Assembly (NCBI GenBank): GCA_964187785.1
Contig: OZ076409.1
Coordinates: 47,742,001-47,806,000, forward strand
Direction: 5' to 3'
From: Amphiscolops sp. MND2022
Lineage: Eukaryota
Length of the DNA: 64,000 bases
Shown here: positions 34,547 through 56,860 of the stretch, one piece after another
Numbering within the stretch: position 1 is the stretch's first letter
Layout: each line of letters starts with the position of its first letter
Position numbers and translations under genes: made by a program
Notes under the pieces: model-generated
Databases searched by the model: none
What the model saw: the letters and a program-made list of their open reading frames with translations, nothing else
Told to the model about the DNA's origin: nothing

Positions 34547-34551
34547 ATTAC

Positions 34552-36303
34552 TGTCGCAGGCTGCCGCCTGTGATGGCACATTAATAACGACGTCGGCGGA
34601 AAATCAAGAAATCATCCCGGGTACCCTACCCACGTTTTAAACTTTCCCTTGCTGAAACTTATATTTATTTGTTAATCACATTCATTTTTGTTTATTCAAG
34701 TGCATTTTATATAAGTGTTCGTGATATTAGTCTGTTAAAATTACGATTTGGAACTATCCAAATCAGGTTGTGATTTGAGATGTGTAAAAGGAAGTTTGTT
34801 GTATTACAAATAGAGTGTTGAAATTAATCAAAGCGGTAACGTACAATAAGCAGGTTGATCGCGAGAAGGAAACGTGTTCAAGTAAGAAAACGTCCCTTCT
34901 CGGCGATGTAACTTTCAGTACAATTATTAGCCAATCAGAGCTCTCCTTTTGCTAATTATGAGTGCTTTATTTATGATGGCCGGATATGGCTAATTGACTA
35001 AGCGGTGCTAATTTATATCAGTCCCCCAGTCAAATGGACGGCTTCGGCCAATTCGAGCATAATGATACTTTGTTGCCTAATTGGATCAATACTTACGCGG
35101 AGTTATTAGAATCATGTTTTTAGTTTAAATAAATACGTTTGTGATGTTTTGATGTTTGTATACCTTTAACTTGGATAAAGGGACGGTTAAGGCCTTTTAC
35201 CATGTCTTTCATATGCGCAGTACATGTTATGGATTTGGGCCTATTCCGGCCCTGATATGCGAGTGTATTTTCGTGAATATCGATGCAGTATTAGGATTCC
35301 ACACATAGTAATACATTCCGTTTTCAGCTTTATTTGCAGTAAACTTGTGCCGGCACGTGCCTTCAATTTACATCACAATAAAATATGTAAGTTGTGGTAT
35401 TTGTTTACATCACACTTGAAGTAGGTCTAACCGACAAATTGTTTGAAGTTGCTACTTAAAATGATGACTCCGAATACCATTCCTAAAATGTCCCCCGGAA
35501 ATATGTAGTTGTCGGGGATTTTCCTATGATGATTGTAAAATCCTATGATTTGTCTTGATCAAAGTATGTAAAAAATGTGTGTGTCATCCTTTCAGGGGTA
35601 TAAATACCCATACCCCTGCAGGAAGACTCATACTTTGTACTTCTCCCCATTTGATAAAGACGTTCACAATACAAACGGTTTCACTGTTAATTTTCCGGAA
35701 TTGATAATTCTAGTCTTGAACCCGGTTCAGTCTTAATGCCTACTACAAGAAAGCAAAAGAAAGCAAGAAAATCTAGAGGATTAGAAATTCTCTCTGACAT
35801 TGAAAACCTTGACATAATGTTAGGTGAAAATCACTTCAATGATACGAGGAGAGACGAAAGTCTCGATGGAAATTCCATTAGAAGGCAAGAAAGTATTATA
35901 AGTAATAACTTGGAAAATGAGGAAATGGATCTCCATTCTGACCATAGAAATCTTGGAGTTGGGACTAGTACCGGGTACGACCGAAATTCAGCAAGTATAG
36001 ATTCTCAAGCTGATATCAATAAGTTGACGAGTGAATTGAACTCTAGAATATCTAGAGAAATGGATGTAATGATGGACAGTGTTAGTTCTCAGATTCAGAG
36101 AGCCATAAGTGACGCTATAAATAATCAGGTTTTGCCCCAAATTCAAAACGTCATTATGGCCGGTTCAGGACAGGAGACTAGAAGGGGATGGGAGAGATCT
36201 GACGAGAGACCGGAAAGTTATTCCGAAGTTCAGTACAACGCGAAAACTAGAACTACCCTCAATAATGAACACGGTGATAAACCACACCGTTATGTTCATG
36301 ACA
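34552..36303 (+). repeat. 5' LTR (1752 bp)
   Basis: TGTCGCAGG...TTCATGACA; matches 55052-56804 at roughly 98% by manual comparison. Confidence 0.95.
35593..35635 (+). promoter_or_regulatory. LTR core promoter (TATA box and Inr-like site)
   Basis: TATAAATA at 35599-35606 between inverted CAGGGGTA/TACCCCTG; TCATACT ~29 nt downstream; AGCCAATCAG CCAAT box at 34929. Confidence 0.6.
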
Positions 36304-37429
36304 TGGTGACAAGAGACAACGAATCTCCAAATCAAGTTCCTGAGTTTCTCACAGGACGAATCTCATCCAGAAATCACCTCGACAGGTCCTTTGAGGACAT
36401 CAACCTTGACACGACGATCCCAGCACAAGAGAGAATCACTACGGCTGCTGACTCTGACCCCAACACTCGACTGGCAGACGTCTTGACTACAATGCAGAAT
36501 AGACCGACAGCCCAACAACTTACCATACGCCCAGTCAACTCAAATACCATGACATTCGATGGCAAAAGCGAAAAATTCGAGCTGTTCGAAGACCTATTTC
36601 ACACTATGATCAAGATGCAGCCAGAAATGACTGAGCAAATGAAGATCAACCACCTCCACTCTTTATTGAGGAAGAATGCTCTTCAGACATTCAGAAATAT
36701 CAGCTCAAGCAACCGACAAACTCTAGAGGACGTATTAGTCATTTTTAGACGAAAATACGTCAAGCCCGAGTCACAGGCGACTGCCAAACATAAATGGCAC
36801 CGTCTGGTCTTCGATCCCAATACGATGAAACTGCCTGATTTTCTCGAAGAATTAAACCAGGGAGCCGAGAAGGCGTTTGGTGATCATGCGCAGAAAATGA
36901 TTGACAGCTTGCTTTATGCAAAACTGCCACCAAAACTGAAGCGGTCCGTCAACATGGCCAGATTAGAAAATGGCTCCTACGATGAGATAGTTGCTCATTT
37001 GGAGAGAGAATTAGAGCTTAACGCCCTCGAGGAGTCAGATGACCTACCAATGGCCACAATGACCTCCTCGACTACAAAATCTAAAACTCCTCTGTCAACT
37101 GGGCAAATGTCAGACATTACTTGCAATTACTGCAAGGCAAGGGCCACATGGTCAAGGACTGCGAAAAACTGAAAAAGAAAAAAGAAAAAGATGCCCAACA
37201 AAGCAAGTCGACGCTGAAGAAAACATATCCGGAGTGTGGCACTTGTGGGAAAAAGAACCACCCGGAGGAGAGATGTTGGCAAGGTGCTGGTGCACATCTT
37301 AAACCCAAGCGCACTAGACCTGAGGACTCAACTGACAAAAAGCCCAATCCCAAGGCTCAGAAACCTCAGACCAAACCGACATCATCGGGCTCCCAATCCT
37401 CATATTCTAATGATGAGTCAAAAAACTAA
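35736..37429 (+). CDS. gag: Gag with two CCHC knuckles; one 1-nt frameshift near 37137
   Basis: ORFs 35736-37172 and 37121-37429 join at CNYCK/GKGHMVKDC; second knuckle CGTCGKKNHPEERC; capsid-like TFDGKSEKFELFEDLF region. Confidence 0.88.
36304..36318 (+). promoter_or_regulatory. Putative primer-binding site
   Basis: TGGTGACAAGAG directly after the LTR-terminal CA; TGG pairs with tRNA CCA; cognate tRNA not identified. Confidence 0.6.
37420..37426 (+). promoter_or_regulatory. -1 ribosomal frameshift slippery site (gag-pol)
   Basis: A AAA AAC immediately before the gag TAA; the -1 frame is open from here into pol. Confidence 0.8.
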
Positions 37430-40400
37430 CTTCGCCACGACTCCAATATAACGAATTAATATCTGTCCGACAATACATCAGATCGGACCCTCCAATGCAG
37501 ACGTTCCACCAATACAATCAGCAATTGATGGGCTATCCCTCTGTTGTCTGGCAGCAGCAGATGGAAAAAGCTACCATCATCACCTTCAATAACACCCATT
37601 TGTTCCAGAAACCAATTCCTGTTTGGGACCCTGATTACACCACCACCTTCACTACCCGGTTCAGGCCCATTCCCCTGATCGATGATTACAATCCAACATA
37701 CATCGATCCAGACTACAACAGAGATCCCTACTGGGACACCGAGCTTTACAACCAAGATTCACTACAATTTCAATATGTCCTGGACGATATTGAACACTAT
37801 AATAGAACAGTCCACGAGAACCCTCCAATTACCCATAACAAGAAAACAAGAGCGCTAATTGAAAACTGGCAAATGAATGATGGCACAAACCATCCAGTGT
37901 TCCCAAACCCATTGGGGACCGAGACCCATGACAGCAATGCTGAACCCATACCACAATCATTGATAGACGAAAAACAGTTCCAAAATGTCTTAATCACTAG
38001 AGACGGTGAACCAGACTGTATACCCCTGTCAACCAACGTCAACCTCAAATGCAAAAAACGCATGTTGTATTTCCCAATGGACTTTGGGGAATTGACCATT
38101 GACGGACTCATTGACACTGGAGCGCTGTCCAGTGCAATTCCTGAAATGGACCTCCGGAAAATTCGACTTTTATCTCCACAATCCGTTATCCGGGAATGTC
38201 CGCCTCCGAACTTCCAAATCATGGTCGCTAATGGGCAACTGGAAACTCCTAAGAGTACCATAGAGCTCAAATTCGAAGTTGGTGACATTGAGTTCCATGA
38301 AATCTTCATAGTGATGGAACATCTGACAGGTCCGATCATTGGACTAATGTTCCTTCAAAGAAACCATACAGTTCTGGACATGAGACAAGGGATACTGAAT
38401 TTCCCGTTCTTTTCGATGCAGCTCAAAACGGCTGACCATAAATACTCAAATGTATTAGAACCAATTCTCAATCCTACTGAGATAACTATTCCGCCAAATG
38501 ATAAAGTCCTAATTAAGACCAATTCCCTACTCTACCCTGAGAATGCTGTCACTGGAATTCTGCAACCGAGCGACCTTCTACATGAAGAAGGCGACATCAC
38601 CTTTTGCCCAGCTTTGGTCACTCTGAATGATGGCAATATATTGATACCAGTGAACAATTTCACAGAACACCCCTATAAACTCAAAAAGGGACTACATATT
38701 GCCAATTTCTCCGTCATGACGCCAGAACAGATGAAGTATGTCAAACCGGTAGATCCGGCATCAACCTGGCACCTGTTGCAGAATGACCAGGAGCAAGCAG
38801 CCCATTACGTCAGCAGTCTCATCAAGACCAATAGAAATCCGCAAAACTCTGAAAATTATTGGTTCCCAACTCCAGAAAATCCTGGAAATCCGGAGGAACA
38901 CACACCTATACAAAAACGAATCCTACGCGAGTTACAGGCCCTACAGGACCTGGAGACACTCGACCCCACTACAGATGCAGAATCGCGTGCAAAATTCTTA
39001 GAAAACTTTGACTGGAAAGATTCCACACTTACTCCTGAAGAGAAGGAGAAAATTGAGGAATTGTTAGTGGAATTCCATGACATCTTTGCACGACACCGCT
39101 TTGATATAGGCATGAACGAGGTATTCAAGGTGAAACTGACGCCTAAGGACGATTCCCCAGCCTATAGTCAAAACCTTCCAGTTCCTATCAACTTGAAGGA
39201 GGACATCCTAGTCGAATTAGCCAGGTTACACAAATATGGCATAATAACCACACTGCCATTCTCGAAATATGCAAGTCCAATATTCGCACAAAAGAAGCCG
39301 AATGGGAAACTCCGACTCTTGGTTGACTTGAGAAAAATCAACAACCCCATCTCGGATGATTATATCAACAATAATCACCCCGTCAGTACACTAGTTGATG
39401 CTGCCCAACACTTGGCAGGCAAAAAACTGTTCTGTAAATTAGACTGCTCGCAGGCATACCACTGCCTACCAATGGCTGACCAACGTTCAATCGAAATGTT
39501 GGCTTTCAATTTTGCCAGTCGCACATTCGCTTACAGACGTTTGGCACAAGGCCTTAGTCGGTCACTATCCGCATTCTCGAGTTTTATTAGAGAATACCTT
39601 GACAAAGTCATTAAAGCGGATCAGTGTGCCCAGTATGTGGACGATATCGGCATTGCAGCCAATGATGTTGACCACCTCATGATGAACCTGAGAGCTACGT
39701 TCAAATGCATTCAGGAAGAAGGCCTTAAGTTAACAATGCACAAATGTCACTTCGGTGCAAAAGAAATTGATTTTCTCGGACGGACTATTACCCCACAAGG
39801 CGTCAAACCCCAGAAACAGAATGTGCACAACTTTCTGGAAAAGACTAAATTCTCGAAGTCGAAAAAGGCTTTACAGCGCTATTTGCGATTCCTAAACTAC
39901 TACAGGAATTATGTCCCAAGACTCTCCGAACGCCTTGCTCCATTCTACAAGATGCTCAAAAGTGACGAAAAGGTCCTAGTATCGAAAGAATTAGTCCAAC
40001 AATTCGAAGAAATCAATAGAGCACTAGACAAATGTTGCGACTTGGCCCTACAGCAACCCATTCCGAACAAGCAAATAGCACTAATGACTGATGCAAGTTT
40101 TGGTGCAGCCGGGTACGCGGTCCTAATCGAAGACGACCCAAGCCAGAAATTTACGTCACTCAGAAAAGCGTATGCACCAGTCGCTTATGGATCAAAAACT
40201 TTCACCCCAGCACAGATCAAAATGTCATATTATGCCAAATAATTCCTTGCAATTTATTTTGCATTCAAAGAATTCGGACATATTTTCTGGGGTGCGCCGA
40301 AACCGGTCATCATCCTTACAGACAACAAAGCTGTCACGAGATTTTTTCAAACAAAAATAATACCCCCAGCCCTGTGGAACGCGTGTGATTATGTCATTCA

Positions 40401-42633
40401 ATTCAATTTTGTCATAGCGCACATCCCGGGGGCACAAAATACCGCTGCTGACTATTTGTCCCGATTGGAAGCAGATCCGAAGGACAAATTGGTGATGAAA
40501 ATTCGCGAAGATGTACAAACACTACCAATCGAAATCAATGTCCAATCCGCAGGGGTGTCACAAGAAGAACAGATCTTCTACACCAATGACGACGATGAGA
40601 CAGAAGAACAGTATTGGGCAAGACAAGAAGCAATCAGAAAAAATCCAGCAACTGATGAGCCCACTGTTACTATACAAACTCTGTCAACAAATCTGGTCAA
40701 GCAACACCCCGATATACAAGTCCGATTGAGGAAGACGAACCAGATCATTATCGAGCAATCCAAAGATGCGGTACTAAAACAATTGAAAGCGAAACTGCTT
40801 CATGAAGAGTATTCAGAAAATCTACTGCACCAGGATGCCCGAAACAGACATTACGCAAACAATCTGGAACGAATTGTACATAAGGACGAAATCCCGACAA
40901 GGCAATACTTTGATGAAACAGGGAACGTTAAATACCATCAAATTCTGCTCCCGCAACATTTACTACAGGAATTGCTTCAGTCTCTTCACGGGACAGCGCA
41001 TAAACATCCTGGCATTTCGAAAAAGTTGCAGGAAATCCGACAAAGGTATTACTACCCTAGCATGGCTAAACACGTCAAAAAGTGGGTAGAAGGGTGCGAA
41101 CAATGTGCCAGAGACAAAAGAGTCCCTAACGCAACGATCACACCTGAACTGCTCAACTTGCCCGAATGGGACCTTGGACCTGAAGACGCCATGCAAATCG
41201 ACCTATTGCCGAACCTTCCGCCAAGTGGAGGATATGAAAATGTCCTAACGGCAATTGATGTATTCTCCAGATATTTGTTCGCCTATCCCCTTACGGACGC
41301 ATCAGCGATCAATGTAGCAAAAGCGCTCATTGACATTATGACTAAACACTCATATCTACCAACGACCCTTATCACTGATAAAGGTACTGCATTTACTTCT
41401 ACAATTATTGCGGAGGTTACGCAGATTTTGGGCATCACACTCAAATGCGCAACGACGAAACACCCGCAGACAATTGGGAAATTGGAGCGTACTCATGCCT
41501 CATTGAAAACAAATCTCAAAATGGCATGTGGAGAATATCGCCGCCAATGGCACAAATACTTGCCATTAGCAGTACTGAATCATAATACTAGTTATCACGC
41601 CAGCATCGGTTGTGAGCCAACGAGAATATTTCATGGAAGAAATCCAGTTAATATTTTGGATCACAAGCTTGGAAATAATCCAAGCGAGCAAATTAACCCC
41701 ACAACCGAATTTGCTGAAGAAATCCAAAACCGGACAAAAATCCTGATTGACAAAACGAAACAGAACATTATTCAGTCGTATATTAAGTACAAAGAATATT
41801 ATGACCGCAAAGCAAAAGCCGCTCCACTAAAGGAGAACGAATACTGTTTTGTCTTACAGCCGAAAGCGGATAATCAAGGATCAAAAATTCCATTCCGCGA
41901 TTACCGTTGGGTTGGACCATTTGTAGTCCAAAATGTTTTGCCAAATGAAAACTATATAGTACGACGGATCAATACGAACAAAACTCAAATTTTGCATCGC
42001 ATTCGTCTTAAGAAGTTTGTCCCCAATCAACCGCTTGAGGATAATTTCCTAGAACAACAGTTGCAGCCAGATGAAGAAATTGTCATTCCGCAAGATGATT
42101 TATATGTCATAACGTGGGAAACCGACTTTGGCGAGCAACTAGTTACACGAGGCAACGAGACTATTCCGACCAGCATGCCGAATGGCGAACAGCCTAATGC
42201 GCCAGAAGCGAATACAAATGACGTAGCCGGGAACGAAGCGGATTACATAACCACGAGTGACGAAACAAGTTACGCTGACCACGCGGCGCGAAGCCGGAAT
42301 GAAAGATTAAATCATGACGTCACAAAAAGGAATGAAGATAGTGAAGCGGCTAGCAATGACAAATCTCATTGGCCGAATCCGGCCGTTCACCCGAAAAATC
42401 AAGAAAAAACTTTGGCGAATACGGATGAAAGACCAAAAAATGACGAAATTCCCTCAGAAAGAAATTTGACGAATGAAAACGACGCACAAAATTCTCCAAA
42501 AAGGGGGGATGATATTATCGTGCCCGAAATATCTGAAAGCGATGCTAGAAATGAGAGTCTGAGCCCTAGAGGAGGGAAATATAATCTCAGACCTAACCCC
42601 AACCCAAACTACTCAGAAGACTACAGATACTAG
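37420..42633 (+). CDS. pol: Pol polyprotein (protease, dUTPase-like spacer, RT, RNase H, integrase); one premature stop at 40240-40242
   Basis: LIDTGA; LRLLVDLRKIN, KLDCSQAY, QYVDD; TDASF..AK*FLA..LTDNKA..AADYLSR; H-H-C-C, QIDLL, ITDKG, KLERTH, GPF; ORFs 37495-40242 and 40456-42633 are in the same frame. Confidence 0.95.
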
Positions 42634-42880
42634 AGAAAATTAAATTCGGTTCAGGAATTAGCCCTGAACTGTTCTGCTTTTTCTCTTTTATTCTCTTTTG
42701 TATCAGTCCCATACAGCAGTATCTTTTGAATAAATAATGGGACGTATGAAAAATCCCTCACAAAGGAAATAACCCGGGATCAAGAAATCAAAAGAAAGAA
42801 ATGTATATAAATAAGGCAACAAATGAAACAGAAAATAAACAAAGTTTACAGTCTTGGTGTACACGTATACATATGTACAA

Positions 42881-45800
42881 TTAGTCTTTAGTAACGCTAG
42901 ACTGAGGAGATACAGTAGCAGAAGAAGCAGAGGACCGAGACGCCCTGCGTTCCATCTTCCTTCGTTTCTTACTACTAGGGGCCTTTACAGCAGGATCATC
43001 AGCGACAGAACCAGCATCCCCGGAATCAATTTGGACAGAGATTCTCTCTGGAGTAGATGACGCAATGCGGCAGGAAGCCAACAAGGACTTGTAAGTTTTT
43101 GAGCGCCCAAAGGTGTCAACATATGTCCAGGGGTCATATTCTTCAGCAAAAGCGGAACGTCCAAAGGAAGAAGATAGAAGGGAAAAGCTAGCCAAGTTGT
43201 CATCATTACTACAGAAAGGCACGGAATCACGGACATTGGCAAGATAACTTTGGCAAGGGAGAATGACATCGGTGAAGCGATTCTGACAGTGGTAACTGTG
43301 CCAAACGTAACGTCAGGGAGGGCTAAACTCACAGAGGTTGCACATAGACAGCACAGCTTGAATAAGTGGAACAGGTGCGCCCGGTCCTGCAAGAACTCAA
43401 GTCCAACCAGGAACTCTATCAGATCTGAGGAGGTACTAGTCAGATCGAAATTGGGACCATAACTAGTCCGTAAGTGGTCCAGTAGCTGCATGTACTGGTC
43501 CCGGCACAGAGACTCATTGGCACTTGGGACCCAAGAACGGAGGGCAAAGGTGTTATACAGCATGTCAAAATGCTTCAGAGCAACGTCCATCGGCCTTTTA
43601 AACATGATGAATGGGTCGAAAGCAGCCAACCCTTTTGCTATGTTGCTTGTCAGCCCAACTCGTTTCAGGACCTCATTGATGAGGAACTGCACATACTGCT
43701 GGCTGTCCTTGACGAAGGCTGTTTTTACCGTCCCTGCGGTGGCCTGTATGGCTGGACGCTCAGACTTCTTTCCAAAGTGGATGCCCTCTGCTCGAGCCCT
43801 GCTAGCTGTCCCTACGCGATTAGACAATTTGAGCCTGACCAGGTATTCATCTTCAGGCAGGAATGTCCCTTCACTGGTCTGGAATCGGAGGAGCAAGAAC
43901 CAGGCATTCTCTAAGGGAACTGTGTCTGGAGTGTAGACCCGGGAACAGAGCAGGCTGACGAATCGACTGACTTCCCCGCAGAGATAGAATGAGGCGTCAC
44001 GCTTATACTGCAGATTCACAGCGAAACTGGTGACATCTAGAAACACAAAATAATGCCCAAATACGAAATGTAACCTAACACAACCTCCCCGCCGAAATAT
44101 ACTCACAGTCACTGACGAGCTTGCGGAAGAATTCCAGTTTGACGACAAAGAATTCGTCACAAATCAAGGACCATTCGAAGCTCTGCACCTGGAATGAAAG
44201 ATCACCCTTACTACGGCGCATAAAGTCCGAAGGACAAACAAGGACTAGGGAAACCCCTTATGAATAAGCCTGTCTAACTGGAATAAAACGTATGGCTCAA
44301 CAGAAAGCTAACCCTGTTGCGAGATCCTTGGCCTTCCTGCAGGGGAGCGTGTGCCGTCAGGTAGCGTAGCACTGACTTCCATTCATCTAACAATGCCTGG
44401 CAAAGAGTGGGCAAGGTTTTGACCTCGAGCTGACAGGTGGTGATAGCCTGTAAACCCACATGGCCAGATGAACTTTGAATATTAGATCCCGAGACTCGCT
44501 ACCCCCATCCCTTTTACCAATTAGGACCACAAAAGAAAGGAAATGTGCCATTGGTTTACTTACCCTAACGAGTTCCGGATGACGCATCACCCAATCTTCG
44601 ACAAGGGAACCACCCAGACTGACCATCAGGGCTTGCAACACCGAGAAGAAGTCTATGTGCCCAAACACGGAGTAGCTCGTCTTATGCATGAGTCTTGCCA
44701 GCGAAAGGTGCTCAAAACGGAAACAACTCTGGACTCCTTGGGTGAAGTACTCTGATTGGTCGATCGTTTTGGCGAATTCAACTGGGCACCCTGAGCATGC
44801 GACCATATCGGGCCGTGTGGAAACTGCTGACTGGAATCGAGCTAGTGACCCCAGTTCCCCAGTCACATCAGTCGCGGGAAGAGAACTTCGGCAGACGTAG
44901 ACCCTACAGAGCTCTAGCTGCTTCCAGTATTTGACTGACATGCATTGGTTGGAACCAATCGTCTCGAATTCGACTGGGAAGCACTGTTGAGTGGACACTT
45001 GCTCAGCGATGTCATGTAGTGCACAGATGAAGAAGTGCTGGAATATGGCCTGAAACGGAACCTAAACCTCAGTACAGGGTAAAGTTCGGAAGAAACATTG
45101 AGGCTTAAAAGACACTACTTACAGTGAGGCGTTCCTCCCCCCAATCGAAATCAGTCACCGTGGCTTGATGGTTGGTGAATGACCCCATCCGTGACCATAA
45201 GTTTCTCAATACCATCATGTCTCCTTGGGTTTTCGCAAAATCTCCCACGAGACAGAGTTGAGTTTTGGCTCTGGATTCTGCTGTGACCAGTGCTGTGGTG
45301 GAGCCCTTGATGTAGTCATCATAAAAGGGGAACCGTTCCCCGATGTCCACCAGTTCTTCATTGATGAAATGAGGAAGTGCCTTTGCCAGCTCCATTTTAC
45401 TCAAGATCTTCCCATTGGCTCCTCGGACTCTATGTTGCACCTTACCCGTGACAGGATCCGTGCTTCGCAGGTGCTCATACCGCCAACGCTGGTTGCGGCG
45501 TAAATGCCGTTGCGTGCGATGATGTCTAAGGATTTCATACGGGCCTTTCGATCTGATAGAAAAGTTCTTTTTACAAATGTGGCACCAGACCATCAAAGGA
45601 TTGTGGACAGGATCGGCAGGTCCTGAGATGAAAGATCTAGTCGAACCTATTTTTGAGAAGAACTCCTCTTTCATGGGACTCCCCGTCTTGAGGGCCTCCG
45701 GTCATTTTTTCCGTTTTTTGGGCCTGGAGGTGGTCCGTGCCGTGGTCCGAGTTTGCTCCCTCAGCTCCTGTAGGGTGGTGTCTTGACTGCTGAACTCTGA

Positions 45801-47277
45801 TGTGTCCGGCTCATTCTGCTGCTGACCAGAAGAAGGTTGGGCTTCGGTTGAAACTTGCAGTGGGGCAGCAGGTTTTTTGAAGGACCGATTTATTAGGTCC
45901 ATCTCTGTGGCACTGTCGCTCTCCTCATAATAAGATGACTCCCCAGTGCCCTCTGAAGATGAGTCAGGTTGGCGTGTAGTAGTTGCTGTTCCTTCTCCTT
46001 CGGATTCCGTCCCACTTGAATCGCTAGAAACTCTGCGCATGGGGGTCTGACAACGACCCTTGGAAAGGAAATGAGCAGTGCGGGAAGGAGCGACGGTGGG
46101 AGAACCCCGAACAGCGTCAATAACCATTCGCTCCATGGTAGAAAATGACCGGTTGAGCGTCTCATCAGTCATAACCCTGAGAAGGTGATATATTTGAGGC
46201 TCAGTGAAGGCAACGGTGGAATGCCCCACAGGAAGACGGATTGGGGCGGCTTCATCAAAATACTCCTTCAAAATTGCCCTACTCCGCCAGGAGAGGTCTG
46301 AAGGCCTACTTTGGGTAGGTTGTGCTCGGGGTGCAAAGTCCTTGCTTGTTCCAGGAATCAGCATCTCGGAACTTGTATCATCTCCGCCTTCAGTTCCCGA
46401 CTCAGGGTGAAAGGGGTTAAAGCCATACAAGGCAACAGGATTCACTTGGCTGACTTCATCGGCAGTTTTCTCCTCATCACTCTGTCCCCCTAGGAAGTGG
46501 ACATGAGGTGCCATTCCAGGCAGAGCGGGCACGTCACAGATTGATGAAGCATTCTCATCGTCCGTTCTGGAAGGAGCCCCGCTAATGTTGGCCATCTCAG
46601 GGTCAGTTCTGTCCCGCAACTCTGGTAGCTGAGACTCAGATGTCACGATAATTTGGAGTGCCGACTCTAAGGCTGACAAATCAGCTTGACAGGGCTCTTC
46701 ATCTTCCTCGGACATGATGGGGGTACTTGACCTCCGGACCGCGGGGTCATCGGATGTTGCCGGAGTAGCTTCAACGGTTGGAGGGATTTCGGCGTTCGTA
46801 CCAGAGGGCGAACCGCCCACTTGTTGTGGGGCAGATTCTTGGTGTCGTTCCATCTTCTGGACCATAGCTTCGGCATATGCAGTGACGTCAGTGCTGCTGC
46901 CCTGACTGTTGATGGGACTGTCTTTCTCAATAGTTGCTGGAGACAGGCCTGCATTGTCTACTTGAGGCCTTACAGGATCAGAAGATGAACCTTCTGGATT
47001 GGCATGGACACTGGCTTGGGACGTGGTTGGCTCGAGAGCATTCTTTTTCGGAAGATTTTCTAAACGAAAAGGAATGAAATTTAGCGGTGTACTTCCTTGA
47101 TATGAATCCATTTTACCGCGATTAGAAACCTTCCGGAAGTGTCTGACAAATTCGAATGAAACGTGTTATCACGTGTTTAGTGATGGAAACAGGAAGTGTA
47201 TTTTGAACAAATTTGACCCTGATCAAGTTAAATGAGTTCTAAAATGAAAATCCAAACCAACCTGAGTCAGAAGACAT
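42881..47277 (-). CDS. Antisense spliced accessory gene: disordered N-terminus, BED zinc finger, hAT-transposase-like body, ~1270 aa; two lesions in this copy
   Basis: Exons 47277-47262, 47059-45123, 45049-44564, 44447-44313, 44188-44107, 44036-42881; GT-AG introns of 202, 73, 116, 124 and 70 bp, all phase-compatible; VWCHICKKNFSI..EILRHHRTQRH; in-frame TGA at 45702-45704 and frameshift near 43288. Confidence 0.78.
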
Positions 47278-48174
47278 GTCGCTGGGGTTCTGATCTGCTA
47301 AACGCTGGTCCAAGCGGGAACGATTGCTGGAAACTGGGGAAATGGCCGGGTATGGCAAGAAAGGAAGAGATTATTCCGACGAAGAAAGAAATACAGCTAA
47401 GACGGGGATAAGAATGGGGTAAATGTTGATGAAGCAAATCCAAAGTGAAAGGAACAAATGAAATATAAATAGAATTGAAATGGAATTAAAATTGGGTAAA
47501 GAATTGAAGAAATTGGGAAGTTGGAGTTCGTGGCTGAAGATTATTACCAGACTAATATTATGGATTATCTACACATTTATTCTGTACATGGAGTCTGCCA
47601 GCGAAGTGTACAAAGGACTTTGTTATTTACAGCCTATTTAATTAAAAGCCAGTTATGGCCGTTTGCCCTGTTTTGTTTTGTTGTTTCGTCCAGTTGCCCT
47701 AGTTACCCTTAGTTAGAATTTTCGCCATCTTGGATTATCCAGATTTATTATTTTCGCCATTTTTGTTATTTAATTTTACAATTTATCGAAGCTTAACGCT
47801 GATTGGATGAATCCATTACGAGAAATTTTGGTGACGCGTGCCGCTAATTGCTTACAAGCGGTCCGTTAATTACCCACTTGAGACGGGTGTAGTTGATATT
47901 CGTAGGACGAGCGTCATTCACACCTCTTCTAGTGATGACACTGATAAGGGGTAAACATCAGGTTATCAAAGGGAGCCGCCTAATCATGGAATTCCATTCA
48001 GAAAAGTTTACGATGGATCGGGACGATTAACCTAAGGTTCTCCCGCCGAGCTGGAAAGTTCGGGAAAAGGCCTGATTCGGCTAAATTATTAAAACTGACA
48101 AATTCATTCTACTACAAACTCCTCTTCGATACAGTCACTACGAATAGCTTCAAAAATATAAAAAAAAGATAATC
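47278..48174. promoter_or_regulatory. Divergent intergenic region between the antisense gene and ORF3
   Basis: Two TTTTCGCCAT(C/T)TT motifs (47719, 47751), CTGATTGG at ~47800; CTGAC branch-like site (48095), pyrimidine tract and CAG (48134) upstream of the ORF3 ATG. Confidence 0.45.
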
Positions 48175-48960
48175 ATGAGCAAATACAACTTAGCTAGAAG
48201 ATTGTTCGAGCTGGAGGAATACGACTCAGATGATTCTGAAAGATCAGTAATATACATTTCCAGCAGTGAGGAAGAGTCATCAAACTGGGAAACCGACTGC
48301 TCCACAGACACGGAGCAGCTTATCGCAAGAATCGAAAGGGAGGTCACCTCCAGCCCCATGCTAATTGGGGGCCGCATAATGACTATGGAGGAACCTTTAG
48401 GAGACGAATCAGAAGCTGGCCCCAGTTCTTCCCAGATGCGAACAGATGTGACTCCGAAATTTGACCACAGGTACTTTGACCAGGAGATGTGTTATGCTCC
48501 CACAATGAAGTTGGGAAAGTCAAGGATAGAGGTTTGCAAGACTCTATTACCAGTGCCAGAGTCACCCATGTCACCGCCTGACCATGAGAGAGGGCCAAGT
48601 TTGGACACCCCCCTGATGCAGCCTACAATAGGTGGTTTTCACGCGTCGTTCCACGTACAGAACACAAGGCCGTACGAGGACGTGAGCAACAAACTGTATT
48701 CTGGTTGTATGGTGTGTGGCAGATCCTCAGAAGCAATAAAGAAAGAGAAAGTAGAATGGTATGTTGCAAGGTCCAAGCCACGAGGAGAGCCTGAGTACAT
48801 CACGAAAATCAGAATAGAAGCATACGAGAACGGTCTCAACGCCGGGGCATTCCTCTTCATAACACCCGCAGTGTCGCAGGCTGCCGCCTGTGATGGCACA
48901 TTAAAAACGACGTCGGCAGAAAATCAAGAAATCATCCCGGGTACCCTACCCACGTTTTAA
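48175..48960 (+). CDS. Retrotransposon accessory ORF3, 261 aa, unknown function, copy 1
   Basis: Intact ATG-TAA ORF in env position, ending inside LTR sequence; acidic Ser-rich N-terminus, CMVC motif; no signal peptide or transmembrane helix seen. Confidence 0.75.
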   Translation: MSKYNLARRLFELEEYDSDDSERSVIYISSSEEESSNWETDCSTDTEQLIARIEREVTSSPMLIGGRIMTMEEPLGDESEAGPSSSQMRTDVTPKFDHRYFDQEMCYAPTMKLGKSRIEVCKTLLPVPESPMSPPDHERGPSLDTPLMQPTIGGFHASFHVQNTRPYEDVSNKLYSGCMVCGRSSEAIKKEKVEWYVARSKPRGEPEYITKIRIEAYENGLNAGAFLFITPAVSQAAACDGTLKTTSAENQEIIPGTLPTF

Positions 48961-49719
48961 ACTTTCCCTTGCTGAAACTTATATTTATTTGTTAATCACA
49001 TCCATTTTTGTTTATTCAAGTGCATTTTATATAAGTGTTCGTGATATTAGTCTGTTAAAATTACGATTTGGAACTATCCAAATCAGGTTGTGATTTGAGA
49101 TGTGTAAAAGGACGTTTGTTGTATTACAAATAGAGTGTTGAAATTAATCAAAGCGGTAACGTACAATAAGCAGGTTGATCGCGAGAAGGAAACGTGTTCC
49201 AGTAAGAAAACGTCCCTTCTCGGCGATGTAACTTTCAGTACAATTATTAGCCAATCAGAGCTCTCCTTTTGCTAATTATGAGTGCTTTATTTATGATGGC
49301 CGGATATGGCTAATTGACTAAGCGGTGCTAATTTATATCAGTCCCCCAGTCAAATGGACGGCTTCGGCCAATTCGAGCATAATGATACCTTTGTTGCCTA
49401 ATTGGACCAATACTTACGCGGAGTTATTAGAATCATGTTTTTAGTTTAAATAAATACGTTTGTGATGTTTTGATGTTTGTATACCTTTAACTTGGATAAA
49501 GGGACGGTTAAGGCCTTTTACCATGTCTTTCATATGCGCAGTACATGTTATGGATTTGGGCCTATTCCGGCCCTGATATGCGAGTGTATTTTCATGAATA
49601 TCGATGCAGTATTAGGATTCCACACATAGTAATACATTCCGTTTTCAGCTTTATTTGCAGTAACTCCTCTTCGATACAGTCACTACGAATAGCTTCAAAA
49701 ATATAAAAAAAAGATAATC

Positions 49720-50505
49720 ATGAGCAAATACAACTTAGCTAGAAGATTGTTCGAGCTGGAGGAATACGACTCAGATGATTCTGAAAGATCAGTAATATAC
49801 ATTTCCAGCAGTGAGGAAGAGTCATCAGACTGGGAAACCGACTGCTCCACAGACACGGAGCAGCTTATCGCAAGAATCGAAAGGGAGGTCACCTCCAGCC
49901 CCATGCTAATTGGGGGCCGCATAATGACTATGGAGGAACCTTTAGGAGACGAATCAGAAGCTGGCCCCAGTTCTTCCCAGATGCGAACAGATGTGACTCC
50001 GAAATTTGACCACAGGTACTTTGACCAGGAGATGTGTTATGCTCCCACAATGAAGTTGGGAAAGTCAAGGATAGAGGTTTGCAAGACTCTATTACCAGTG
50101 CCAGAGTCACCCATGTCACCGCCTGACCATGAGAGAGGGCCAAGTTTGGACACCCCCCTGATGCAGCCTACAATAGGTGGTTTTCACGCGTCGTTCCACG
50201 TACAGAACACAAGGCCGTACGAGGACGTGAGCAACAAACTGTATTCTGGTTGTATGGTGTGTGGCAGATCCTCAGAAGCAATAAAGAAAGAGAAAGTAGA
50301 ATGGTATGTTGCAAGGTCCAAGCCACGAGGAGAGCCTGAGTACATCACGAAAATCAGAATAGAAGCATACGAGAACGGTCTCAACGCCGGGGCATTCCTC
50401 TTCATAACACCCGCAGTGTCGCAGGCTGCCGCCTGTGATGGCACATTAAAAACGACGTCGGCAGAAAATCAAGAAATCATCCCGGGTACCCTACCCACGT
50501 TTTAA
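49720..50505 (+). CDS. Accessory ORF3, copy 2
   Basis: Same protein as copy 1 except N>D in SSDWE. Confidence 0.72.
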   Translation: MSKYNLARRLFELEEYDSDDSERSVIYISSSEEESSDWETDCSTDTEQLIARIEREVTSSPMLIGGRIMTMEEPLGDESEAGPSSSQMRTDVTPKFDHRYFDQEMCYAPTMKLGKSRIEVCKTLLPVPESPMSPPDHERGPSLDTPLMQPTIGGFHASFHVQNTRPYEDVSNKLYSGCMVCGRSSEAIKKEKVEWYVARSKPRGEPEYITKIRIEAYENGLNAGAFLFITPAVSQAAACDGTLKTTSAENQEIIPGTLPTF

Positions 50506-51264
50506 ACTTTCCCTTGCTGAAACTTATATTTATTTGTTAATCACATCCATTTTTGTTTATTCAAGTGCATTTTATATAAGTGTTCGTGATATTAGTCTGT
50601 TAAAATTACGATTTGGAACTATCCAAATCAGGTTGTGATTTGAGATGTGTAAAAGGACGTTTGTTGTATTACAAATAGAGTGTTGAAATTAATCAAAGCG
50701 GTAACGTACAATAAGCAGGTTGATCGCGAGAAGGAAACGTGTTCCAGTAAGAAAACGTCCCTTCTCGGCGATGTAACTTTCAGTACAATTATTAGCCAAT
50801 CAGAGCTCTCCTTTTGCTAATTATGAGTGCTTTATTTATGATGGCCGGATATGGCTAATTGACTAAGCGGTGCTAATTTATATCAGTCCCCCAGTCAAAT
50901 GGACGGCTTCGGCCAATTCGAGCATAATGATACCTTTGTTGCCTAATTGGACCAATACTTACGCGGAGTTATTAGAATCATGTTTTTAGTTTAAATAAAT
51001 ACGTTTGTGATGTTTTGATGTTTGTATACCTTTAACTTGGATAAAGGGACGGTTAAGGCCTTTTACCATGTCTTTCATATGCGCAGTACATGTTATGGAT
51101 TTGGGCCTATTCCGGCCCTGATATGCGAGTGTATTTTCATGAATATCGATGCAGTATTAGGATTCCACACATAGTAATACATTCCGTTTTCAGCTTTATT
51201 TGCAGTAACTCCTCTTCGATACAGTCACTACGAATAGCTTCAAAAATATAAAAAAAAGATAATC

Positions 51265-52050
51265 ATGAGCAAATACAACTTAGCTAGAAGATTGTTCGAG
51301 CTGGAGGAATACGACTCAGATGATTCTGAAAGATCAGTAATATACATTTCCAGCAGTGAGGAAGAGTCATCAGACTGGGAAACCGACTGCTCCACAGACA
51401 CGGAGCAGCTTATCGCAAGAATCGAAAGGGAGGTCACCTCCAGCCCCATGCTAATTGGGGGCCGCATAATGACTATGGAGGAACCTTTAGGAGACGAATC
51501 AGAAGCTGGCCCCAGTTCTTCCCAGATGCGAACAGATGTGACTCCGAAATTTGACCACAGGTACTTTGACCAGGAGATGTGTTATGCTCCCACAATGAAG
51601 TTGGGAAAGTCAAGGATAGAGGTTTGCAAGACTCTATTACCAGTGTCAGAGTCACCCATGTCACCGCCTGACCATGAGAGAGGGCCAAGTTTGGACACCC
51701 CCCTGATGCAGCCTACAATAGGTGGTTTTCACGCGTCGTTCCACGTACAGAACACAAGGCCGTACGAGGACGTGAGCAACAAACTGTATTCTGGTTGTAT
51801 GGTGTGTGGCAGATCCTCAGAAGCAATAAAGAAAGAGAAAGTAGAATGGTATGTTGCAAGGTCCAAGCCACGAGGAGAGCCTGAGTACATCACGAAAATC
51901 AGAATAGAAGCATACGAGAACGGTCTCAACGCCGGGGCATTCCTCTTCATAACACCCGCAGTGTCGCAGGCTGCCGCCTGTGATGGCACATTAAAAACGA
52001 CGTCGGCAGAAAATCAAGAAATCATCCCGGGTACCCTACCCACGTTTTAA
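51265..52050 (+). CDS. Accessory ORF3, copy 3
   Basis: As copy 2 with P>S (PVSES). Confidence 0.72.
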   Translation: MSKYNLARRLFELEEYDSDDSERSVIYISSSEEESSDWETDCSTDTEQLIARIEREVTSSPMLIGGRIMTMEEPLGDESEAGPSSSQMRTDVTPKFDHRYFDQEMCYAPTMKLGKSRIEVCKTLLPVSESPMSPPDHERGPSLDTPLMQPTIGGFHASFHVQNTRPYEDVSNKLYSGCMVCGRSSEAIKKEKVEWYVARSKPRGEPEYITKIRIEAYENGLNAGAFLFITPAVSQAAACDGTLKTTSAENQEIIPGTLPTF

Positions 52051-52809
52051 ACTTTCCCTTGCTGAAACTTATATTTATTTGTTAATCACATCCATTTTTG
52101 TTTATTCAAGTGCATTTTATATAAGTGTTCGTGATATTAGTCTGTTAAAATTACGATTTGGAACTATCCAAATCAGGTTGTGATTTGAGATGTGTAAAAG
52201 GACGTTTGTTGTATTACAAATAGAGTGTTGAAATTAATCAAAGCGGTAACGTACAATAAGCAGGTTGATCGCGAGAAGGAAACGTGTTCCAGTAAGAAAA
52301 CGTCCCTTCTCGGCGATGTAACTTTCAGTACAATTATTAGCCAATCAGAGCTCTCCTTTTGCTAATTATGAGTGCTTTATTTATGATGGCCGGATATGGC
52401 TAATTGACTAAGCGGTGCTAATTTATATCAGTCCCCCAGTCAAATGGACGGCTTCGGCCAATTCGAGCATAATGATACCTTTGTTGCCTAATTGGACCAA
52501 TACTTACGCGGAGTTATTAGAATCATGTTTTTAGTTTAAATAAATACGTTTGTGATGTTTTGATGTTTGTATACCTTTAACTTGGATAAAGGGACGGTTA
52601 AGGCCTTTTACCATGTCTTTCATATGCGCAGTACATGTTATGGATTTGGGCCTATTCCGGCCCTGATATGCGAGTGTATTTTCATGAATATCGATGCAGT
52701 ATTAGGATTCCACACATAGTAATACATTCCGTTTTCAGCTTTATTTGCAGTAACTCCTCTTCGATACAGTCACTACGAATAGCTTCAAAAATATAAAAAA
52801 AAGATAATC

Positions 52810-53595
52810 ATGAGCAAATACAACTTAGCTAGAAGATTGTTCGAGCTGGAGGAATACGACTCAGATGATTCTGAAAGATCAGTAATATACATTTCCAGCA
52901 GTGAGGAAGAGTCATCAGACTGGGAAACCGACTGCTCCACAGACACGGAGCAGCTTATCGCAAGAATCGAAAGGGAGGTCACCTCCAGCCCCATGCTAAT
53001 TGGGGGCCGCATAATGACTATGGAGGAACCTTTAGGAGACGAATCAGAAGCTGGCCCCAGTTCTTCCCAGATGCGAACAGATGTGACTCCGAAATTTGAC
53101 CACAGGTACTTTGACCAGGAGATGTGTTATGCTCCCACAATGAAGTTGGGAAAGTCAAGGATAGAGGTTTGCAAGACTCTATTACCAGTGCCAGAGTCAC
53201 CCATGTCACCGCCTGACCATGAGAGAGGGCCAAGTTTGGACACCCCCCTGATGCAGCCTACAATAGGTGGTTTTCACGCGTCGTTCCACGTACAGAACAC
53301 AAGGCCGTACGAGGACGTGAGCAACAAACTGTATTCTGGTTGTATGGTGTGTGGCAGATCCTCAGAAGCAATAAAGAAAGAGAAAGTAGAATGGTATGTT
53401 GCAAGGTCCAAGCCACGAGGAGAGCCTGAGTACATCACGAAAATCAGAATAGAAGCATACGAGAACGGTCTCAACGCCGGGGCATTCCTCTTCATAACAC
53501 CCGCAGTGTCGCAGGCTGCCGCCTGTGATGGCACATTAAAAACGACGTCGGCAGAAAATCAAGAAATCATCCCGGGTACCCTACCCACGTTTTAA
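52810..53595 (+). CDS. Accessory ORF3, copy 4
   Basis: Same protein as copy 2. Confidence 0.72.
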   Translation: MSKYNLARRLFELEEYDSDDSERSVIYISSSEEESSDWETDCSTDTEQLIARIEREVTSSPMLIGGRIMTMEEPLGDESEAGPSSSQMRTDVTPKFDHRYFDQEMCYAPTMKLGKSRIEVCKTLLPVPESPMSPPDHERGPSLDTPLMQPTIGGFHASFHVQNTRPYEDVSNKLYSGCMVCGRSSEAIKKEKVEWYVARSKPRGEPEYITKIRIEAYENGLNAGAFLFITPAVSQAAACDGTLKTTSAENQEIIPGTLPTF

Positions 53596-54354
53596 ACTTT
53601 CCCTTGCTGAAACTTATATTTATTTGTTAATCACATCCATTTTTGTTTATTCAAGTGCATTTTATATAAGTGTTCGTGATATTAGTCTGTTAAAATTACG
53701 ATTTGGAACTATCCAAATCAGGTTGTGATTTGAGATGTGTAAAAGGACGTTTGTTGTATTACAAATAGAGTGTTGAAATTAATCAAAGCGGTAACGTACA
53801 ATAAGCAGGTTGATCGCGAGAAGGAAACGTGTTCCAGTAAGAAAACGTCCCTTCTCGGCGATGTAACTTTCAGTACAATTATTAGCCAATCAGAGCTCTC
53901 CTTTTGCTAATTATGAGTGCTTTATTTATGATGGCCGGATATGGCTAATTGACTAAGCGGTGCTAATTTATATCAGTCCCCCAGTCAAATGGACGGCTTC
54001 GGCCAATTCGAGCATAATGATACCTTTGTTGCCTAATTGGACCAATACTTACGCGGAGTTATTAGAATCATGTTTTTAGTTTAAATAAATACGTTTGTGA
54101 TGTTTTGATGTTTGTATACCTTTAACTTGGATAAAGGGACGGTTAAGGCCTTTTACCATGTCTTTCATATGCGCAGTACATGTTATGGATTTGGGCCTAT
54201 TCCGGCCCTGATATGCGAGTGTATTTTCATGAATATCGATGCAGTATTAGGATTCCACACATAGTAATACATTCCGTTTTCAGCTTTATTTGCAGTAACT
54301 CCTCTTCGATACAGTCACTACGAATAGCTTCAAAAATATAAAAAAAAGATAATC

Positions 54355-55140
54355 ATGAGCAAATACAACTTAGCTAGAAGATTGTTCGAGCTGGAGGAAT
54401 ACGACTCAGATGATTCTGAAAGATCAGTAATATACATTTCCAGCAGTGAGGAAGAGTCATCAGACTGGGAAACCGACTGCTCCACAGACACGGAGCAGCT
54501 TATCGCAAGAATCGAAAGGGAGGTCACCTCCAGCCCCATGCTAATTGGGGGCCGCATAATGACTATGGAGGAACCTTTAGGAGACGAATCAGAAGCTGGC
54601 CCCAGTTCTTCCCAGATGCGAACAGATGTGACTCCGAAATTTGACCACAGGTACTTTGACCAGGAGATGTGTTATGCTCCCACAATGAAGTTGGGAAAGT
54701 CAAGGATAGAGGTTTGCAAGACTCTATTACCAGTGTCAGAGTCACCCATGTCACCGCCTGACCATGAGAGAGGGCCAAGTTTGGACACCCCCCTGATGCA
54801 GCCTACAATAGGTGGTTTTCACGCGTCGTTCCACGTACAGAACACAAGGCCGTACGAGGACGTGAGCAACAAACTGTATTCTGGTTGTATGGTGTGTGGC
54901 AGATCCTCAGAAGCAATAAAGAAAGAGAAAGTAGAATGGTATGTTGCAAGGTCCAAGCCACGAGGAGAGCCTGAGTACATCACGAAAATCAGAATAGAAG
55001 CATACGAGAACGGTCTCAACGCCGGGGCATTCCTCTTCATAACACCCGCAGTGTCGCAGGCTGCCGCCTGTGATGGCACATTAAAAACGACGTCGGCAGA
55101 AAATCAAGAAATCATCCCGGGTACCCTACCCACGTTTTAA
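54355..55140 (+). CDS. Accessory ORF3, copy 5 (runs into the complete 3' LTR)
   Basis: Same protein as copy 3; last 89 nt lie within the 3' LTR. Confidence 0.72.
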   Translation: MSKYNLARRLFELEEYDSDDSERSVIYISSSEEESSDWETDCSTDTEQLIARIEREVTSSPMLIGGRIMTMEEPLGDESEAGPSSSQMRTDVTPKFDHRYFDQEMCYAPTMKLGKSRIEVCKTLLPVSESPMSPPDHERGPSLDTPLMQPTIGGFHASFHVQNTRPYEDVSNKLYSGCMVCGRSSEAIKKEKVEWYVARSKPRGEPEYITKIRIEAYENGLNAGAFLFITPAVSQAAACDGTLKTTSAENQEIIPGTLPTF

Positions 55141-56804
55141 ACTTTCCCTTGCTGAAACTTATATTTATTTGTTAATCACATCCATTTTTGTTTATTCAAG
55201 TGCATTTTATATAAGTGTTCGTGATATTAGTCTGTTAAAATTACGATTTGGAACTATCCAAATCAGGTTGTGATTTGAGATGTGTAAAAGGACGTTTGTT
55301 GTATTACAAATAGAGTGTTGAAATTAATCAAAGCGGTAACGTACAATAAGCAGGTTGATCGCGAGAAGGAAACGTGTTCCAGTAAGAAAACGTCCCTTCT
55401 CGGCGATGTAACTTTCAGTACAATTATTAGCCAATCAGAGCTCTCCTTTTGCTAATTATGAGTGCTTTATTTATGATGGCCGGATATGGCTAATTGACTA
55501 AGCGGTGCTAATTTATATCAGTCCCCCAGTCAAATGGACGGCTTCGGCCAATTCGAGCATAATGATACCTTTGTTGCCTAATTGGACCAATACTTACGCG
55601 GAGTTATTAGAATCATGTTTTTAGTTTAAATAAATACGTTTGTGATGTTTTGATGTTTGTATACCTTTAACTTGGATAAAGGGAGGGTTAAGGCCTTTTA
55701 CCATGTCTTTCATATGCGCAGTACATGTTATGGATTTGGGCCTATTCCGGCCCTGATATGCGAGTGTATTTTCATGAATATCGATGCAGTATTAGGATTC
55801 CACACATAGTAATACATTCCGTTTTCAGCTTTATTTGCAGTAAACTTGTGCCGGCACGTGCCTTCGTTTTACATCACAATAAAATATGTAAGTTGTGGTA
55901 TTTGTTTACATCACACTTGAAGTAGGTCTAACCGACAAATTGTTTGAAGTTGCTACTTAAAATGATGACTCCGAATACCATTCCTAAAATGTCCCCCGGA
56001 AATATGTAGTTGTCGGGGATTTTCCTATGATGATTGTAAAATCCTATGATTTGTCTTGATCAAAGTATGTAAAAATTGTGTGTGTCATCCTTTCAGGGGT
56101 ATAAATACCCATACCCCTGCAGGAAGACTCATACTGTGTACTTCTCCCCATTTGATAAAGACGTTCATAATGCAAACGGTTTCACTGTTAATTTTCCGGA
56201 ATTGATAATTCAAGTCTTCAACCCGGTTCAGTCTTAATGCCTACTACAAGAAAGCAAAAGAAAGCAAGGAAAACTAGACGATTAGAAATTCTCTCTGACA
56301 TTGAAAACCTTGACATAATGTTGGGTGAAAATCACTTCAATGACACGAGGAGAGACGAAAGTTTCGATGGAACTTCCATTAGAAGGCAAGAAAGTATTAT
56401 AAGTAATAACTTGGAAAATGAGGAAATGGATTTCCATTCTGACCATAAAAATCTTGGAGTTGGGACTAGTACCGGGTACGACCGAAATTCAGCAAGTATA
56501 GATTCTCAAGCTGAGATCAATAAGTTGTCGAGTGAATTGAACTCTAGAATATCTAGAGAAATGGATGTAATGAGGGACAGTGTTAGTTCTCAGATTCAGA
56601 GAGCCATGAGTGACGCCATAAATAATCAGGTTTTGCCCCAGATTCAAAACGTCATTATGGCCGGTTCAGGACAGGAGACTGGAAGGGGATGGGAGAGATC
56701 TGACGAGAGACCGGAAAGTTATTCCGAAGTTCAGTACAACGCGAAAACTAGAACTACCCTCAATAATGAACACGGTGATAAACCACACCGTAATGTTCAT
56801 GACA
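55052..56804 (+). repeat. 3' LTR (1753 bp)
   Basis: TGTCGCAGG...TTCATGACA followed by ATTAC. Confidence 0.95.
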
Positions 56805-56860
56805 ATTACCAATCAAGCCCATTATCTCGTACTACTTATTCTTTTACCAGATGTGATTAA
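56237..56860 (+). other. LTR-encoded copy of the Gag N-terminus reading into flanking DNA (207 aa)
   Basis: First ~189 aa nearly identical to the 35736 ORF; diverges exactly at the LTR end. Confidence 0.8.

Follow-up and report, generated by a model that had tools for sequence, protein, structure and literature searches.

Antisense genes have been described in Gypsy retrotransposons of plants and fungi. In plant Retand/Tat elements, antisense TRP28 (PF04195) open reading frames (ORFs) are proposed to encode DNA-binding regulators; TRP28 is limited to flowering plants, and in maize Grande the accessory gene product is nuclear and its gene has an own promoter (PMC11963269). The Boty-like (BcGypsy1) elements of Botrytis carry brtn, an additional antisense gene in a Gypsy family (PMC8365987). 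Further, the long terminal repeat (LTR) retrotransposons of bdelloid rotifers have captured ORF3s that are not env (GDSL, DEDDy) and are common to several element types (PMC5408684). Here we study a Gypsy element at 34552..56804 of a stretch of 64,000 nucleotides from Amphiscolops sp. MND2022 (GenBank assembly GCA_964187785.1, contig OZ076409.1, positions 47,742,001 to 47,806,000, forward strand), hereafter the window. Between pol and the 3' LTR it carries a five-exon antisense gene and a sense ORF, ORF3.

In having a conserved antisense gene in the interval from pol to the 3' LTR the element resembles Retand and Grande, and an extra antisense gene in a Gypsy element is also what brtn represents. 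However, compared with Retand the gene here has five exons, a product of about 1,290 amino acids (aa) and descent from a DDE transposase, and there is a second, sense ORF that runs into the LTR; in Pfam searches the antisense protein has no PF04195 match. With the rotifer elements it shares the capture of non-env ORFs by animal Gypsy elements. The rotifer ORF3s lie downstream of pol, are catalytically intact and family-specific, and show no significant departure from neutrality within the genome (PMC5408684), whereas the gene described here is antisense, catalytically dead, found clade-wide and strongly selected. Giant LTR elements are defined by an internal region of >20 kb (PMC6431247), and the label giant, given to the element in the first-pass annotation of this DNA, is not upheld at 12.6 kb. 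The planarian giant Gypsy Burro is, like our element, an animal Gypsy with extra regulatory domains, but it exceeds 30 kb and has the extras within a huge polyprotein, while here the element is 16 kb and the genes are separate (PMC6431247).

Our main result is that the antisense protein is, by profile comparison, a homologue of a whole DDE transposase without the catalytic residues. Antisense accessory genes as such are already known in plant and fungal Gypsy elements; what appears to be new is one derived from a transposase. Literature listings and abstracts contained no Gypsy element with such a gene (Repbase, Dfam, GyDB, subscription journals and supplements lay outside this search), and neither did the available parts of PMC13524379, PMC13317346, PMC6238403 and PMC9911081. 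Domestication of transposases is usually credited to hosts; in this case the domesticating party appears to be a clade of retrotransposons.

The antisense gene and its relation to DDE transposases

Four GT-AG introns divide the antisense gene into five exons, and their codon positions agree in all families examined. In the window the exons are placed as follows.

45123..47111, minus strand: exon 1, with an acidic low-complexity region of ~480 aa (one conserved block), a basic patch, a C2H2 finger and a highly conserved region of ~130 aa
44564..45049, minus strand: exon 2, 486 nt, aligned with the part of the transposases that holds the first two catalytic Asp (not kept here)
44313..44447, minus strand: exon 3, 135 nt
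44107..44188, minus strand: exon 4, 82 nt
42881..44036, minus strand: exon 5, ~385 codons, helical, resembling the C-terminal half of DDE transposases

For comparison 44 loci were fetched, every one selected for a match to the antisense gene: DNA similarity brought in 20, the finger region 8, and the other 16 are distant homologues of exon 5. The exon chain is found in 18 of these, and in 11 the first exon is long and the spliced exons read as a single open frame of 1,202-1,336 aa. In 12 copies the GT donors and AG acceptors lie at identical codon positions (two sites could not be located by patterns, and the fourth acceptor is not included). The lengths of exons 3 and 4 were preset by the search and hence are not independent evidence. 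Between families the introns drop to 46-67% identity, and the nonsynonymous distance (dN) of the exons beyond the N-terminal region is 0.06-0.31. Because splice sites and codon positions are conserved, we infer that the gene is spliced. A model with three or four exons was rejected, as the first donor guess was not conserved.

The ratio of dN to the synonymous distance (dS) is low for the antisense gene: 0.008-0.19 between L077/78 and L081/82, 0.05-0.18 between L037/38 and L045/46, and 0.06-0.19 in a third pair, while dS is saturated in the remaining four of seven pairs. For pol the ratio is 0.045-0.12. By this measure the antisense gene is under purifying selection. The annotation had proposed to test both accessory genes for a dN/dS below 1, and this is what we find wherever the ratio is measurable.

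The finger, C-x2-C-x16-H-x5-H, is invariant in 13/13 antisense proteins, and Pfam finds a ZN292-like C2H2 match in nine of the 13 finger regions. In the earlier description this was a BED-finger gene; the finger itself stands, the zf-BED label has no Pfam match, and the ancestry of the protein from a whole transposase had been missed.

This ancestry is based on 11 metagenomic DDE ORFs, obtained from loci gathered with a motif, where 11/79 yielded ORFs of at least 300 aa. HHalign of the antisense profile against these ORFs gives 95.5% (E 1.5e-8; 94.5% in a repeat run), compared with <1% for gag and ORF3 and <0.3% for shuffled and reversed controls. In hmmsearch, nine of the 11 forward ORFs pass and none of the 11 reversed ones. 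The significant stretch of the match is exons 4-5, and in a global alignment the two groups of proteins are collinear from the finger onward, with the fingers aligned to each other. The matched ORFs keep D206, D270, C300/H303, R358/W359 and E638. All 11 aligned antisense proteins have no Asp at the first two sites, the second being placed with doubt, and no Glu at the third; the first column varies between E and A, with V or I in other rows. Further, in all 11 the W of RW is kept, its R is replaced and CxxH is absent.

The combination D-D-CxxH-RW-E is the signature of hAT transposases. The antisense protein resembles hAT (Hermes) and a DDE group outside Pfam, characterized by the motif HGQA.VERGFS, in its zinc finger, collinear core and helical C-terminal half. 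It differs from hAT transposases by the missing D, D, E, CxxH and R of RW, by the ~480-aa N-terminal addition and by its location inside an LTR element. A structural model of exon 5 (predicted local distance difference test, pLDDT, 78.9) has Hermes 358-609 as its sole full-span structural match, with Z 5.6 and a root-mean-square deviation of 6.6 over 167 residues, which is below trust level. Feature matches in a protein atlas reach 0.90 to PF05699 and PF27046 clusters and are weak by the atlas's own caveats. The protein likely belongs to hAT. As for the matched DDE ORFs, there is one weak zf-BED match among the six scanned, the profile match to canonical hAT is 1.7% and centred on the Glu motif, and no terminal inverted repeats together with a target-site duplication (TSD) were found. 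The HGQA.VERGFS transposases (L133, L136, L149, L167, L173, L182) are abundant and match no Pfam family above threshold.

Four other searches gave nothing: a second-look structural comparison, a search for longer homologues of exon 5, a scan of metagenomes for the finger region, in which none of 329 pattern matches was confirmed, and a motif scan of viral contigs.

Distribution of the cassette, the spacer and ORF3

The order and orientation of gag, reverse transcriptase (RT), integrase (IN), exon 5, finger and ORF3 are the same in 36/44 loci, and this layout persists down to a protein identity of ~25%. One part is missing in six loci. In the other two, L089/90 and L091/92, the antisense gene is present without gag, RT, IN or ORF3; they are possibly a non-autonomous family bearing the accessory gene alone. 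Of pol, L089/90 retains only the last ~60 codons, and four loci have a score equal to that of L089/90. The expectation of the annotation that the accessory genes are regularly present, and not a one-off nested insertion, is thus borne out by the 36 complete loci. The clade is highly abundant, with 7,553-7,805 first-look candidates, which are not copy numbers. Several families have LTR identities of 99.3-100% together with open frames.

Trees of RT, exon 5 and ORF3, built from the copies in this genome, contain identical deep groups, with low RT support within groups. The accessory proteins are about ten times more diverged than RT. Further, the antisense gene and ORF3 have been exchanged between families independently of each other. 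The two-gene accessory module of the annotation is therefore correct in being stable and selected, but the pair is not locked. Within groups, too, the parts have been reshuffled: the window copy and L041/42 are 89% identical in the antisense region and 74% in U3. One distant homologue has a best match in this genome of only 38-40% identity, and for this reason the antisense gene may be present in other species too.

Between the antisense gene and ORF3 lies a spacer, with the following features in the window.

47112..48174, no strand: spacer, 1063 bp, ATG to ATG
47130-47139, within the spacer: palindrome CTTCCGGAAG
near 47261-47219, minus strand: conserved small donor/acceptor-like pair
47723 and 47755, within the spacer: CGCCAT[CT]TT
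48106, within the spacer: A of TCATTC, with AGTCA at +28
48175..48960, plus strand: ORF3, 261 aa from the first ATG, its last 89 nt being the start of the 3' LTR

The two genes do diverge from a shared spacer, as first described, although its size is 1,063 bp and not 0.9 kb. Conserved promoter-like motifs are found at both ends. The palindrome CTTCCGGAAG is perfect and occurs once per element in 15/16 copies; in 13 of 14 spacers its distance to the antisense ATG is 16-21 nt. Upstream of ORF3, TCATTC is followed by AGTY at +27 to +29 in 12/16 copies (exactly +28 in seven), compared with 0.4% in shuffles. The spacer motifs are similar to YY1, ETS, initiator (Inr) and downstream promoter element (DPE) sites, and the TCATTC/AGTY arrangement resembles an Inr/DPE promoter.

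At 47219-47277, minus strand, an ATG (GTG in one copy) precedes CAG|GTTGG, with AACTTGATCAG ~40 nt further on, in ten of the 11 copies shown. This conserved set lies upstream of the main antisense ATG and is a possible micro-exon, upstream ORF or intron of the 5' untranslated region.

ORF3 is acidic and mostly disordered. Its highest 19-residue hydropathy is 0.6-1.35 in 12 copies, i.e. there is no membrane segment, and Pfam gives no match to env, in agreement with its earlier description as a non-env ORF. The stop lies 83-89 nt inside the 3' LTR in the ten copies measured, and dN/dS is 0.08 and 0.20 (upper bound 0.51). There are 184 ORF3 homologues, and the 120 listed are all of one source type. 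An in-frame KIAKK-like peptide precedes the first ATG in 15/16 copies, which suggests an earlier start, possibly non-AUG. The structural model is poor (pLDDT 53.5), atlas matches are at most 0.82, and Pfam finds a weak zf-C2H2_12 in 4/42.

The annotation had regarded ORF3 as a motif-mimic adaptor. An acid-flanked motif resembling a SUMO-interacting motif (SIM) is indeed found in 11/11 ORF3 copies, which are related to each other. The RxL-like motif is restricted to the group of the window copy and is missing from nine of the 11, so that RxL cyclin-motif mimicry was rejected as a general feature. VSQAAAC was also rejected as a protein motif: it is conserved at the DNA level and is the LTR end. 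Conservation of the LTR's first ~18 nt is at the DNA level and extends even to third codon positions (16 copies listed), so that part of the apparent ORF3 protein motif is the LTR end.

A possible nuclear helper and its alternatives

We propose that an ancestor of the Gypsy clade acquired a spliced, hAT-like DDE transposase gene 3' of pol in reversed orientation. The data show that a transposase gene was captured, disarmed, retained across the clade and kept under selection, while its expression and its role are inferred. Antisense introns survive reverse transcription, as is established for LTR elements; they cannot be spliced from the genomic RNA, and therefore the gene would pass whole into every new copy. 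An internal two-way promoter within the spacer would drive transcription of the gene, and the product would be a protein of ~1,290 aa that does not cut DNA and has retained the zinc finger and the helical scaffold. In the nucleus, this protein would be a trans-acting helper, bound to DNA or chromatin, that sustains transcription of the clade, by activation or by anti-silencing, with the added acidic N-terminal region as its putative effector part. ORF3, expressed from its own Inr/DPE-like start, might provide an acidic, SIM-bearing cofactor or a decoy for SUMO-dependent repression, and this is the weaker part of the proposal. The target of the helper would be conserved across the clade, for example the palindrome beside the antisense start, and not the family-specific U3.

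A spacer-expressed, trans-acting nuclear helper that binds DNA or chromatin, with ORF3 as cofactor or SUMO decoy, is in our judgement a tentative reading with somewhat less than an even chance of being right. More doubtful is the wider proposal that an entire radiation of animal LTR retrotransposons domesticated a cut-and-paste transposase as a trans-acting anti-silencing or activating factor with a SUMO-decoy partner, the cassette being exchanged between families. The model for such a function is VANC21 and VANC6, the element-borne trans-acting anti-silencing proteins of Arabidopsis VANDAL transposons (PMC6719617). The likeness is one of proposed role, and VANC differs in having a DNA transposon as host and family-specific repeated target motifs.

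Several results weigh against the helper or the ancestry on which it builds. All 44 loci were selected via the antisense gene. When loci were instead chosen by RT and joined by eye to an ORF3 or antisense match at the expected distance, among the matches listed, at least 21 of 40 (the window copy included) were tied to an accessory gene; the other 19 were left unjudged. U3 does not travel with the cassette: in one pair, identity is 96% for U3, 97% for gag-pol and 98% for ORF3, but 69% for the antisense region. Since cassette and U3 are exchanged separately, the antisense protein is, in these comparisons, not matched to a family-specific U3, and recognition of such a U3 was rejected. Further, the palindrome is single in each element, whereas VANC-type systems depend on repeated motifs. 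The SIM pattern was written after viewing the data and is present in 6-15% of shuffles. Against the transposase profile exon 2 alone gives 0.7% and the finger region alone 4%, and because neither matches by itself the placement of the second Asp is uncertain. The exon proteins have no hAT (PF05699) or zf-BED match in Pfam, the antisense protein has no Foldseek match in PDB and viral libraries and no sequence match in PDB, and HHalign finds no profile match to the canonical hAT fragments of this genome (0.08%).

The conserved palindrome, single and next to the start codon of the gene, would also fit autoregulation. In such a self-restraint, the dead transposase would bind its own promoter or the elements of the clade and repress them, limiting copy number or timing activity, and convergent antisense transcription may contribute. 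Domesticated hAT proteins include repressors. Transposable elements commonly control themselves, and cases of anti-silencing are rare (PMC6719617). However, the clade is very abundant, and several young families have LTR identities of 99.3-100%. Copies that cheat should shed a brake acting in trans, yet young copies hold the gene open. On balance we hold self-restraint to be unlikely.

The conservation of the first ~18 nt of the LTR raises a role in integration or in the particle, where the protein tethers the integration complex to selected chromatin or shields the cDNA ends via a scaffold, derived from the transposase, that binds DNA ends. Hermes binds ends via BED domains and higher-order assembly (PMC10368747), and a role on conserved ends is compatible with free swapping of the cassette. 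However, integrase alone predicts that LTR ends are conserved, the TSDs have no obvious common sequence, and the long acidic N-terminal region seems more like a transcription effector. This puts an integration cofactor among the rather improbable explanations.

With catalytic sites gone while fold and finger stay, the protein could alternatively be a decoy that poisons host hAT-derived repressors or active transposases through mixed oligomers and needs no DNA target within the element. The accessory proteins diverge far faster than RT and hAT loci are numerous in the genome (150 scored matches), as a decoy would have it. The antisense protein has no detectable profile match to the PF05699-type fragments of the genome, and an arms race is not indicated by the low dN/dS over the distances measured. 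We hold the decoy to be improbable.

That the gene is a neutral passenger, a DNA transposon nested within one Gypsy lineage and copied along, gains something from the selection of loci on the antisense gene and from the two loci with the gene and no gag, RT, IN or ORF3, but it is very improbable: dN/dS is far under 1, intron positions are conserved despite diverged introns, catalytic residues are lost in all families and the deep trees match, so that the selection data refute it unless they stem from a host gene, and no such single-copy host gene was seen.

The gene has been kept, introns included, across divergence to ~25% identity. Should the wider proposal of a domesticated anti-silencing or activating factor be true, the clade would offer an animal equivalent of VANC, in which one class of transposon has domesticated another, and it might help to explain an LTR-dominated genome. 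Few anti-silencing proteins encoded by transposable elements are known, the best example coming from plants (PMC6719617). Being a high-copy clade with young open copies, these elements make the function directly testable, and the antisense introns are a natural marker that separates accessory mRNA from genomic RNA.

Element boundaries, the window copy and neighbouring features

The remaining parts of the element are located as follows.

34547..34551, plus strand: left TSD, ATTAC
34552..36303, plus strand: 5' LTR, 1752 bp, TGTC...GACA, TATA-like box at 35599, contains the first ~570 nt of gag
36304..36321, plus strand: sequence like a primer-binding site (PBS), TGGTGACA.., immediately 3' of the 5' LTR
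35736..37429, plus strand: gag, begins in the LTR and reads through the PBS, frame change near 37140 in the window copy
37417..42633, plus strand: pol (protease-RT-RNase H-IN), in -1 frame relative to gag, one stop at 40240-40242 in the window copy
48117..55841, plus strand: five tandem 1545-bp units, each composed of ORF3 and the initial ~790 bp of the LTR
55052..56804, plus strand: complete 3' LTR
56805..56809, plus strand: right TSD, ATTAC

The 5-bp TSD ATTAC on both sides, together with the LTRs, confirms that gag, pol, the antisense gene and the sense ORF3 are held in one element, as had been claimed. Both the 5' LTR and the last 3' LTR begin with TGTC and end with GACA, and between them there are 33 substitutions and one indel (~1.9%). 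With one tandem unit the element is 16,073 bp, agreeing with the 16.1 kb first given without the four extra units, and the internal region is 12,568 bp; the length of 22 kb in the window is due to the local tandem array. In 30 measured sister copies the size is 14.7-18.5 kb, mostly ~16 kb, and 21 of these loci have an exact 5-bp TSD.

The tandem units differ from each other by only 0-3 nt, and the array is therefore younger than the insertion of the element. Its junction has short microhomology, and the extra units are without the TCATTC site and without the LTR TATA box. Pairs of ORF3 matches 2.6-3.4 kb apart are present at other loci (G000 C3:63.21 Mb, C7:39.62 Mb, C4:72.82 Mb, C4:57.98 Mb, C2:3.07 Mb), so local duplication of ORF3 and LTR seems to recur outside the window. 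At G000 C12:14.85-14.87 Mb and other loci, matches are ~14.4 kb apart, a spacing that suggests head-to-tail elements with a common LTR.

The PBS-like sequence TGGTGACA.. directly follows the 5' LTR in all 17 copies listed, altered in one. A check for a polypurine tract found a short GGGGAG run in 9/16 copies listed and in 0/7 of the window's group, at a site that is ORF3 coding sequence. The domain order of pol is that of Gypsy, with protease, RT, RNase H and IN. About 190 gag codons (35736-36303) lie within the LTR, and each 3' LTR and solo LTR therefore bears a promoter and a truncated gag frame. After the pol stop, a plus-strand AATAAA occurs within 330 nt in 16/17 copies (42634-42880 in the window), in a stretch that is A/T-rich; it might possibly terminate the gag-pol mRNA ahead of the antisense cassette.

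In the window copy all five ORF3 copies are open, while gag, pol and the antisense gene are broken, the latter by a stop at 45702-45704 and a frame change near 43285. The gag frames of sister copies are open, with 570-610 aa.

Outside the element, exons of a methyltransferase-like gene with a DPPW motif are found at 17466-19390, minus strand, presumably a METTL3-like N6-methyladenosine methyltransferase. Two other minus-strand frames probably belong to host genes: one of 1,395 aa at 9476-13660, and one at 3669-4469 that we assume to be short-chain dehydrogenase-like. On the plus strand, endonuclease and RT remnants at 25448-28191 and 57411-58162 are what we take to be traces of elements like long interspersed elements (LINEs). 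Finally, duplications of ~2.1 kb are present at 28.2-32.4 kb of the window.

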